From NCBI RefSeq assembly GCF_009931435.1, contig NZ_CP043414.1: a stretch of 64,000 bases of DNA. The stretch is one strand, 5' to 3'. The stretch comes from Escherichia coli. Lineage in GTDB: Bacteria > Pseudomonadota > Gammaproteobacteria > Enterobacterales > Enterobacteriaceae. The translations under genes and the position numbers were made by a program. The notes under the pieces are model-generated. The model saw nothing but the letters and a program-made list of their open reading frames with translations. It ran no database searches and had not been told where the DNA came from. Positions within the stretch are counted from its first letter, which is position 1; each line of letters begins with the position of its first letter. Positions 25,100 through 25,664 of the stretch are shown one piece after another.

Positions 25100-25104
25100 T
25101 GAAT

Positions 25105-25130
25105 GAAATGCCGGATCTTGTATCCGGCAT
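25105..25130 (+). terminator. Short hairpin immediately after the tsx stop
   Basis: gccggat-cttgt-atccggc followed by attt. Confidence 0.4.
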
Positions 25131-25162
25131 TTCAGATTGTTAACAACGTGCGCTTTGTTCAT

Positions 25163-25260
25163 GCCGGATGCGGCGTAAACGCCTTATCCGGCCTACAAAA
25201 ACACGTAAATTCAATACATTGCTGAGATTACGTAGGCCTGATAAGCGTAGCGCATCAGGC
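25163..25260. repeat. Pair of REP elements in opposite orientation (BIME-like) after tsx
   Basis: gccggatgcggcgtaaacgccttatccggcctac and gtaggcctgataagcgtagcgcatcaggc read in the sequence. Confidence 0.8.
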
Positions 25261-25288
25261 AATTTTGCGTTTGTCATAAAGCTCAAAT

Positions 25289-25317
25289 AACGGATTTTGT
25301 ATCCGTCATTTTTTTAT
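25289..25317 (+). terminator. Rho-independent terminator (plus strand) ending at the yajD stop codon
   Basis: aacggat-tttgt-atccgtc followed by atttttttat. Confidence 0.6.
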
Positions 25318-25664
25318 CACTTCTTCTTATTCATCATCGCTTTTAAATCAGCGAATGGGTTGTACTTCGCTTCACCGACATCTTTCTGCGCATCTTCCCC
25401 TGCGATAACGGTCGTACCATACTGATCCGCTTCGGTATATTTCGAATGCTCATGATCGTGGCAATAGAGACACAACAATTCCCAGTTACTGCCATCTTCC
25501 GGGTTATTAGTATGGTCGTGATCGATATGGTGAACGGTAAGTTCACGCAGATTGGAGTAGACAAACTCGCGGGAGCAGCGTCCACACACCCACGGATAGA
25601 TTTTTAATGCTTTTTCGCGATAGCCGCTTTCTAACCGCGCATAATTTTTTGGGATGATAGCCAT
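25317..25664 (-). CDS. yajD: HNH-nuclease-family protein YajD
   Basis: Track ORF, 115 aa; HNH-type motif (HHIDHDH ... CLYCHDHEH). Confidence 0.92.
   Translation of the reverse strand: MAIIPKNYARLESGYREKALKIYPWVCGRCSREFVYSNLRELTVHHIDHDHTNNPEDGSNWELLCLYCHDHEHSKYTEADQYGTTVIAGEDAQKDVGEAKYNPFADLKAMMNKKK

Follow-up and report, generated by a model that had tools for sequence, protein, structure and literature searches.

The spacer between tsx and yajD in a 64,000-nucleotide stretch of Escherichia coli DNA (hereafter, the window) raises the question why two convergent genes should be separated by so crowded a set of signals: a short hairpin after tsx, an inverted pair of REPs, and then a second hairpin with a T-run directly before the yajD stop codon on the other strand. 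The initial annotation of this DNA had taken the layering to reflect several transcript-end or stabilizing signals. Our analysis favors a different origin. A BIME-1 would have hit a bidirectional terminator once shared by both genes and left copies of the terminator hairpin on both of its sides, a reading to which we assign a probability of roughly 0.8. Judging by their sequence, the crowded signals appear to be the scar of an insertion rather than a designed module.

Layout of the tsx-yajD spacer

The genes tsx and yajD are convergent, with secF following next after yajD, and their spacer in the window measures 217 bp and comprises, in this order, hairpin 1, a Y REP, a linker, a Z1 REP, hairpin 2, a run of seven T's (T7), and a single A. 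Gene names were taken from annotated E. coli records matching the region, and the encoded Tsx protein shows 100% identity to K-12 Tsx (tblastn). The window represents a divergent lineage, i.e., its best match reaches 98.5% over 5.2 kb of housekeeping genes and most genomes are at ca. 97%. The features of the region are listed here by position and strand, with the basis of each assignment in brackets:

24215-25099, + strand: tsx coding sequence, nucleoside channel and phage receptor, stop codon TGA at 25097-25099 (open reading frame list; annotation of matching E. coli records)
25104-25134, no strand assigned: hairpin 1, putative left copy of a duplicated stem-loop, with the repeat copy at 25106-25132 (repeat search and folding)
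25133-25284, no strand assigned: complete BIME-1 of 152 bp (missing as a block in empty alleles; same ends at other loci and in another genus)
25133-25162, + strand: Y-side terminal motif CAGATTGTTAACAACGTGCGCTTTGTTCAT (conserved at unit ends; single occurrence in the window)
25163-25196, + strand: Y REP, a palindromic unit that ends in CTAC (0 mismatches to the consensus, 0 expected in shuffles)
25197-25231, no strand assigned: L linker of 35 nt (with the IHF-consensus-like ATTCAATACATTG at 25209-25221)
25232-25260, - strand: Z1 REP, short Z-type and inverted (0 mismatches to the consensus, 0 expected in shuffles)
25262-25284, + strand: Z1-side terminal motif ATTTTGCGTTTGTCATAAAGCTC (alignments; its last 15 nt are absent in the K-12-type allele)
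25270-25311, no strand assigned: 42-bp segment deleted in K-12-type E. coli and in E. albertii (alignment; E. albertii L009)
25285-25311, no strand assigned: hairpin 2, putative right and diverged copy, with its core stem at 25290-25306 (11-nt arms, 91% complementary)
25309-25315, + strand: T7 run (sequence and terminator scan; same hairpin-TTTTTTATCA junction in the empty-site allele)
25317-25664, - strand: yajD coding sequence, HNH nuclease family, stop-codon complement at 25317-25319 (open reading frame list)

All elements that had been proposed at first sight are thus present: the short hairpin after tsx is a perfect 13-bp hairpin at 25104-25134, the BIME-like pair consists of the Y REP and the inverted Z1 REP, and the hairpin plus T-run before yajD correspond to 25285-25311 and 25309-25315, respectively. 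The T-run does adjoin the yajD stop codon as described, but it ends one nucleotide before this codon and not on it.

The spacer as a whole folds far better than shuffled sequences (z = -6.0 on the + strand and -7.6 on the - strand), and the terminator scan alone is not significant with two sites observed and 1.9 expected. A promoter scan found no sigma-70-like promoter in the tsx-yajD spacer, and a role as promoter region was dropped for want of such a site. An Rfam search of positions 24900-25500 returned no separate RNA family and only sub-threshold hits derived from the REPs (naRNA4 RF02564 with 40.4 bits at a gathering score of 59.5, ES036, and others), which ruled out the spacer as the home of a distinct RNA family. 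The small open reading frames (40-48 aa) seen at 25103-25290 lie across the REPs, a common sight with repeats of this kind.

A complete BIME-1 between the hairpins

The REP pair is part of one unit that runs from an end motif through the Y REP, the L linker, and the inverted Z1 REP to a second end motif. Both palindromic units are extragenic, have the GTAG/CTAC foot, and match their consensus, and they stand head-to-head across the 35-nt linker as a single unit instead of a tandem array. This is the layout of BIME-1, which is defined as one Y and one Z1 REP in inverted orientation with a long L linker that often contains an IHF site, present in single copy and ca. 140 bp long (PMC3333891). At the loci that we examined, the short Z type was always paired with L-type linkers. 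The IHF-like ATTCAATACATTG has one mismatch to WATCAANNNNTTR, a loose pattern that is not significant alone; a search with the IHF consensus gave 77 matches compared to 57 expected, too unspecific to serve as proof. Further REP copies lie at positions 10943, 44996, 58683, and 58737 of the window, with none expected by chance.

The Y REP folds with -21 kcal/mol and the entire unit forms one long hairpin with paired flanks (-49 to -51 kcal/mol). Its termini, GAGACTGATGACAAACGC... and ...GCGCACGTTGTCAGCAATCTG, are conserved in an alignment of ten copies from six gene pairs and two genera, and they are imperfect inverted repeats of each other (GAGACTGATGACAAACGC vs the reverse complement CAGATTGCTGACAACGTGCGC). 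Presence or absence of BIME-1 among isolates has been reported earlier (PMC1187871). Taken by themselves, the REPs, BIME-1, the IHF site, the position between convergent genes, the role in 3' ends and stabilization, and the polymorphism are all established knowledge.

Two hairpins as apparent copies of one terminator

Hairpin 1 is built from two 13-nt arms (25104-25116 and 25122-25134) that are 100% complementary and enclose a 5-nt loop, and it folds with ca. -20 kcal/mol on either strand. Read in yajD sense, the stem is followed by AUUUCAUUCAU and fits an intrinsic terminator, i.e., a stem-loop with a U-rich tract; in tsx sense, there is no U-run behind the stem. Compensatory differences between K-12 (GCCGGGA...TCCCGGC) and the window (GCCGGAT...ATCCGGC) have kept the stem intact. 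For hairpin 2, the terminator scan reported the stem at 25290-25306 followed by CATTTTTTTA in tsx sense. In this direction it fits an intrinsic terminator, with CAUUUUUUUA after a stem that is weak (-7.7 kcal/mol). The A.C mismatch that is part of the stem in tsx sense becomes a G.U pair in yajD sense, where the fold energy is ca. -14.8 kcal/mol. There, hairpin 2 begins ca. 6 nt past the yajD stop codon and consists of a fair stem with G.U pairs and a poor U-tract.

Both hairpins belong to a 27-nt direct repeat with 85% identity (AAATGCCGGATCTTGTATCCGGCATTT and AAATAACGGATTTTGTATCCGTCATTT) that adjoins the unit on both sides. The initial annotation had not described this direct-repeat relation. 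The two hairpins appear to be copies of one ancestral bidirectional terminator that flank the inserted BIME-1, and the T7 run is the original U-tract of this terminator in tsx sense.

Natural alleles of the spacer

Allele counts were drawn from 5,426 complete E. coli genomes. The full 217-bp form of the window is present in six of them, and in one of these, strain 2017-02-2CC, an IS621 has entered the Z1 REP at its GTAG edge. Strains WL297 (NZ_CP128613.1) and 2013C-4282 (NZ_CP027579.1) also carry the full form. The K-12 type makes up ca. 70% of the genomes and has a spacer of 175-176 bp with hairpin 1 and both REPs, from which 42 bp comprising hairpin 2 and the preceding 15 nt are missing; the boundaries of this deletion are ambiguous by ca. 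3 nt due to flanking T's. Hairpin 2 is missing from ca. 70% of E. coli genomes and also from E. albertii. The empty allele, found in ca. 30% of genomes (e.g., strains 1190, NZ_CP023386.1, and AR_0067), has a 37-bp spacer from stop codon to stop codon, in which a single hairpin (AATGCCGGATttcatATCCGGCATTTTTTA, ...TAATTGTGAGAATGCCGGATTTCATATCCGGCATTTTTTATCA) is flanked by an A-run and a T-run. Its frequency is an estimate from 9 of 30 evenly spaced rows, with 3,803 of the 5,426 genomes covering at least 80% of the filled query.

Between the empty and filled tsx haplotypes, the stop codon (TAA vs TGA), the loop (TTCAT vs YTTGT), and adjacent bases are not the same, and because of these differences both are regarded as old. 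The K-12 tsx allele appears to be a truncated derivative and the window form the complete one, because one conserved unit terminus is missing from the former. E. albertii and K-12 have an identical 42-bp deletion, to be accounted for by common ancestry, interspecies exchange, or recurrence. Escherichia sp. MOD1-EC7003 has a related hairpin adjoining the yajD stop codon.

The proposed course of events begins with an ancestral spacer that would have contained one bidirectional intrinsic terminator, i.e., a GC-rich stem-loop bordered by an A-run and, at its opposite end, a T-run, a single-terminator state that would survive in ca. 30% of E. coli genomes. A BIME-1 of ca. 150 bp would have entered at the base of this stem-loop and left a 27-nt copy of it on each side, with hairpin 1 as the probable tsx-side copy and hairpin 2 together with the original T-run as the probable yajD-side copy. 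The window would have kept the complete product of this insertion, and most E. coli would later have lost the 42 bp that include 15 nt of the unit end and hairpin 2. Subsequent loss of one of the two hairpin copies, as in the K-12 tsx allele, would have been frequent.

The same architecture at other loci

We surveyed BIME-1-like units across 664 kb, i.e., this window together with parts of K-12 (ten 50-kb pieces) and of strain 2017-02-2CC (two pieces). Inside the window, the spacer between ddlA (57540-58634, + strand) and yaiZ (58817-59056, - strand) contains AAATGCCCAATAACTGTTATTGGGCATTT, a BIME-1, and then AACGCCCAATCCTCTGTTATTGGGCGTTTT; this site is filled in 222 of the 5,426 genomes, and where it is empty, the stop codons are separated by a spacer with one such hairpin. 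At yqeA-yqeB of K-12, a perfect 27/27 repeat (GGCCGGGTGGGTAATACCATCCGGCCA) flanks a full unit on both sides. This site is filled in 1,649 genomes, the unfilled alleles are 180 bp shorter (sampled rows), and the empty allele has exactly one hairpin copy followed by a T-run. A 30-nt repeat with 28/30 identical positions is found around the unit at yfeW-yfeX of K-12 and a borderline repeat of 19-21 nt at rsmS-mscK of strain 2017-02-2CC.

Outside of Escherichia, Pseudocitrobacter faecalis and a Pseudocitrobacter MAG have a homologous unit at tsx-yajD in opposite orientation, which is flanked on either side by a copy of a different local hairpin (GCACCGAACG...; AAGCACCGAACG...CGTCGGTGCTT); this insertion is an independent event. 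The Pseudocitrobacter-type hairpin occurs once, adjoining the yajD end, in Citrobacter, Kosakonia, and P. vendiensis, and it is essentially the sole element of the Kosakonia tsx-yajD spacer. Among 80 yajD loci of other species, BIME-1 units were found nowhere but in tsx-yajD spacers.

Local alignment of cognate flanks gave scores of 32, 28, 26, 23, 20, 18, and 13, with 20 for the tsx-yajD pair; non-cognate flanks (n = 126), taken as the null, averaged 8.5 and reached at most 13, with 11 as the 95th percentile. The duplications are 27, 27, 28-29, 29-30, and 30 nt long and follow the size of the local stem-loop, with 19-21 nt in the borderline case. The insertion model is limited by the count of 13 BIME-1-like units in 664 kb, of which just four are clear two-hairpin cases and one is marginal. 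Units at yaaX-yaaA, cueO-gcd, trpS-yhfZ, and mrcA-nudE have a terminator-like hairpin at one end only, and the remaining ones are degenerate or clustered. At cueO-gcd, a second hairpin copy was found in no allele examined, including longer ones; PSUO2 and MS57-2 carry an extra Y REP at this locus, and ABU83972 has only a unit remnant of ca. 35 bp. Empty and filled alleles that differ by the presence of a whole unit were also seen at ddlA-yaiZ, cueO-gcd, and yqeA-yqeB.

The direction of change at an empty allele could be that of insertion, or empty sites could be regenerated by recombination between the copies. The two-hairpin state might accordingly be old and the empty alleles secondary, with the BIME precisely lost by recombination or slippage between hairpin copies. 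Direct repeats of 27-30 nt around ca. 150 bp are indeed good deletion substrates, the remnant of ca. 35 bp at cueO-gcd in ABU83972 indicates that internal deletions happen, and earlier PCR work, as cited in PMC1187871, described the absence of BIME-1 as excision. However, the empty haplotype at tsx-yajD with its own stop codon, loop, and nearby bases does not look like the product of a recent excision, and a single hairpin at the yajD end is the state seen in related genera. We therefore consider secondary loss unlikely. Loss would concern the direction of change only, and the original duplication would still be required.

Transcript 3' ends across the element

Term-seq of K-12 has located a very strong tsx-sense 3' end with 117,062 reads at MG1655 position 430963, within ...GCGCATCAGGCAATT[T] and ca. 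6 nt beyond the Z1 REP stem, and the same list contains no further 3' end in the K-12 tsx-yajD spacer (Adams 2021, PMC7815308, Supplementary file 1). The tsx RNA of K-12 therefore extends beyond hairpin 1 and the Y REP. On the opposite strand, the yajD RNA of K-12 crosses Z1, L, and Y and ends after hairpin 1 at ...CCCGGCATTTTCA[T]AATCAG. This terminator works in vivo and also in single-round in vitro transcription, and the end is reported to be neither a decay product nor Rho-dependent (Kosinski 2025, PMC12207403). Because the K-12 RNAs of both genes extend through the REPs, these published ends contradict, for the K-12 allele, the picture of a single 3' end at hairpin 1 against which the initial annotation had set its proposal. 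Its suggestion of several transcript-end or stabilizing signals stands insofar as multiple functional 3' signals are documented in K-12, but the duplicated hairpins speak against purpose-built layering.

The K-12 data fit the insertion model because each stem-loop with its U-tract now lies on the far side of the element. Insertion would have parted each gene from the terminator half that bears its U-tract, and with the terminator split, both transcripts would therefore now run into the element. The tsx RNA would end mainly behind the Z1 REP, the stem of which is followed by AAUUU, and for the window allele we infer this main end to lie just after the REP near 25265, with hairpin 2 and U7 as a probable back-stop at which read-through would cease. 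The yajD RNA would be terminated in part at hairpin 2 of the window allele, and RNA passing this point would cross the whole BIME-1 and terminate at hairpin 1, the predicted distal intrinsic terminator, with an expected end near 25102. Given read-through from both sides, the tsx and yajD mRNAs would therefore overlap in antisense by ca. 160-210 nt.

The use of both REP-proximal and hairpin 3' ends in K-12 would also suit a purpose-built layered module in which each of the three parts (hairpin, REP pair, and second terminator) was separately selected for the ends and stability of tsx and yajD transcripts. The compensatory differences that preserve the stem of hairpin 1 between K-12 and the window point the same way, as does the reported correlation of REPs between convergent genes with higher expression of both (bioRxiv 10.64898/2026.03.23.713779). 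Yet the two hairpins are duplicates rather than independent inventions, the REP pair forms a single mobile unit, which ca. 30% of genomes lack, and hairpin 2 is missing in ca. 70% of them and thus dispensable. Furthermore, the identical architecture at unrelated gene pairs argues for an insertion mechanism over locus-specific design, and we regard a layered module as improbable. Least credible of all is that hairpin 2 arose as a late, lineage-specific duplication or gene-conversion patch on a K-12-type spacer unrelated to the BIME insertion, which would suit the rarity of the full form (6/5,426) and the divergence of the window lineage (best match 98.5% over 5.2 kb) but not the conserved terminal 15 nt of the unit within the 42 bp, which are present in other units, the related hairpin by the yajD stop codon of Escherichia sp. 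MOD1-EC7003, or the two-copy pattern at four other sites.

Proposed insertion into a terminator and its implications

For the insertion of BIME-1 into the shared terminator, we infer either structure-directed cutting at both bases of the extruded stem-loop or template switching of replication at the hairpin, because the size of the duplication tracks the hairpin (27-30 nt) and not a fixed stagger. Duplication-free single-strand transposition of the IS200/RAYT type, the favored model of REP mobility, does not fit the flanking duplication.

How REPs and BIMEs enter new sites has been an open question for ca. 40 years, and a 2026 preprint still describes REP insertion as mechanistically unresolved and semi-random. 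The filled/empty pairs would be footprints of such insertions (yqeA-yqeB with 27/27, yfeW-yfeX with 28/30, tsx-yajD, ddlA-yaiZ, and Pseudocitrobacter); they point to terminator stem-loops as the preferred target, would explain the frequent position of BIME-1 between convergent genes, and make the insertion mechanism testable. They also offer an explanation for an annotation puzzle, i.e., that each gene is effectively terminated by the hairpin copy across the element and that 3' UTRs hold REPs and overlap in antisense (in K-12).

In a broader and more tentative reading, BIME-1 elements may be terminator-seeking units that integrate at the stem base of intrinsic terminators and duplicate the whole stem-loop, resulting in a structure-sized duplication of which tsx-yajD would be a rare intact footprint. 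We consider this generalization possible, with the odds somewhat against it. If it is true, current RAYT/IS200-type models do not predict the structure-sized duplication, and the three natural alleles would be a ready test of REP effects on convergent mRNAs.

No description of a hairpin-sized target duplication at BIME-1 was found in a full-text literature search, the coverage of which did not extend to the empty-site paper of 1997. In that work, Bachellier et al. (Genetics) reportedly sequenced empty sites of BIME-1. The hairpin-sized target duplication and the implied terminator specificity may be new, and a prior description may exist; if the duplication has already been described in older work, the locus would offer a well-resolved but otherwise ordinary case of a known polymorphic repeat.

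Comparison with known systems

The window unit has the same composition, order, and inverted orientation as BIME-1 (also known as RIP/RIB), including the 35-nt L linker with an IHF-like site, and shares its extragenic position between convergent genes and its presence/absence polymorphism. It differs in that the terminator hairpin of the host is duplicated at both of its ends.

REPIN-RAYT systems are REP doublets mobilized by a single-copy IS200-like tyrosine transposase. The window unit resembles such doublets in having two inverted REPs and a spacer that fold into one long hairpin, and in being non-autonomous, mostly vertically inherited, and rarely duplicated. However, IS200/IS605-type single-strand transposition proceeds without target duplication (PMC2817692), whereas the window unit is associated with hairpin-sized duplications of 27-30 nt. 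No RAYT gene was found within the 64-kb window.

Among bidirectional intrinsic terminators, the empty-site allele is a good match with its single stem-loop between an A-run and a T-run. In contrast, the terminator of the window is split, i.e., the stem-loop is present twice and each copy has one of the flanking tracts.

Like MITEs, the window unit is short and non-coding (ca. 150 bp) with imperfect terminal inverted repeats, flanking direct repeats, and filled and empty alleles. MITEs combine terminal inverted repeats with a duplication of fixed length, whereas the duplication is variable here (27-30 nt) and has the size of the local stem-loop, much longer than the 2-10 bp that are typical of DDE transposases.

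Finally, IS621 (of the IS110 family) and IS1397 insert into REPs. The REP specificity of IS621 has been reported (PMC3184786), and its insertion in strain 2017-02-2CC fits this preference. At tsx-yajD, by contrast, the REP-bearing element itself would be the insert and the terminator hairpin its target.

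BIME-1 units between copies of the local terminator hairpin

BIME-1 units (Y REP, L linker and inverted Z1 REP) that lie between copies of a terminator stem-loop are found beyond tsx-yajD, both in the window and in E. coli K-12 (L-numbers denote comparison sequences, with coordinates counted within each):

Window 58641-58830: second BIME-1 of the window, in the spacer between ddlA (57540-58634, + strand) and yaiZ (58817-59056, - strand), with terminator hairpin copies at both flanks
L100 12401-12598: K-12 yqeA-yqeB BIME-1, between two copies of the terminator stem-loop at this locus that match perfectly (27/27)
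L104 49407-49645: K-12 yfeW-yfeX BIME-1, with the local terminator stem-loop directly repeated at its two flanks (28/30 identical)

At ddlA-yaiZ, where the flanking copies in the window are AAATGCCCAATAACTGTTATTGGGCATTT and AACGCCCAATCCTCTGTTATTGGGCGTTTT, only 222 of the 5,426 complete E. coli genomes are filled, and K-12-like genomes have a 23-bp spacer with a single hairpin. An empty allele of yqeA-yqeB was likewise found (L103), and it carries exactly one copy of the stem-loop.

Remnants and insertions

Most of a BIME-1 unit can be deleted internally, as the cueO-gcd spacer of strain ABU 83972 (L098) shows: it retains only a scar, the terminal ~35 bp (GAACAAATCGCACGTTGTCAGCAATCTGAGCAAGCC) adjoining the hairpin. 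PSUO2 and MS57-2 instead have an additional Y REP in this spacer.

In strain 2017-02-2CC, the Z1 REP of the tsx-yajD BIME-1 is interrupted by IS621 of the IS110 family (L006 195-1475), which separates GTAG from GCCTGATAAG precisely at their junction. The IS621 transposase gene has a second, identical copy between cynR and codA (L093 42939-43919). The tsx-yajD spacer of strain N96 probably contains a similar insertion of ~1.4 kb. Strain AR_0067, which has an empty tsx-yajD spacer, carries an IS200C transposase gene between yajD and secF (L005 2060-2518).

Hairpins around yajD

Hairpin 1 reads GCCGGGA TTTAT TCCCGGC in K-12 (L001 1095-1125) and GCCGGAT CTTGT ATCCGGC in the window (25104-25134), so that stem pairing is preserved despite the base changes, a pattern consistent with selection on structure. 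On the other side of yajD, a further hairpin lies in the gap to secF:

Window 25744-25773, - strand: strong terminator-like hairpin of 13 pairs, followed by T8

Given this hairpin, yajD and secDF probably do not share a transcript.

Lineage of the window and relatives

Across 5.2 kb of housekeeping genes (19000-24200), the window is ~97% identical to most complete E. coli genomes (5,426 compared), with no match among them above 98.5%; it comes from a divergent Escherichia lineage. The nearest genomes over this interval, WL297 and 2013C-4282, also have the rare full tsx-yajD spacer. In the cryptic-clade Escherichia sp. MOD1-EC7003, whose contig stops short of tsx, the same site downstream of yajD (L011 1887-2161) holds Y and short-Z REPs arrayed in tandem and then, adjoining the yajD stop, the hairpin TAATGCCGGATTTTGTAGTCGGCATT.

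YajD is also encoded on two contigs filed under Firmicutes species, at 100% identity on a 720-bp contig labeled Alkalicoccobacillus porphyridii (L007) and at 92% on one labeled Candidatus Dorea intestinavium (L079). Both carry E. coli-type REP arrays alongside the gene and are most likely enterobacterial contamination of these assemblies.

Further REP units in the window

Window 10939-11049: degenerate BIME-1-like unit with Z1, shortened linker, decayed Y and conserved Y-side end motif
Window 44996-45080: Y REP and long Z-type REP, head-to-head, with a 13-nt linker

No flanking hairpin duplication was seen at the degenerate unit. It lies immediately 3' of a stop codon. The head-to-head pair is of the BIME-2-like, short-linker type.
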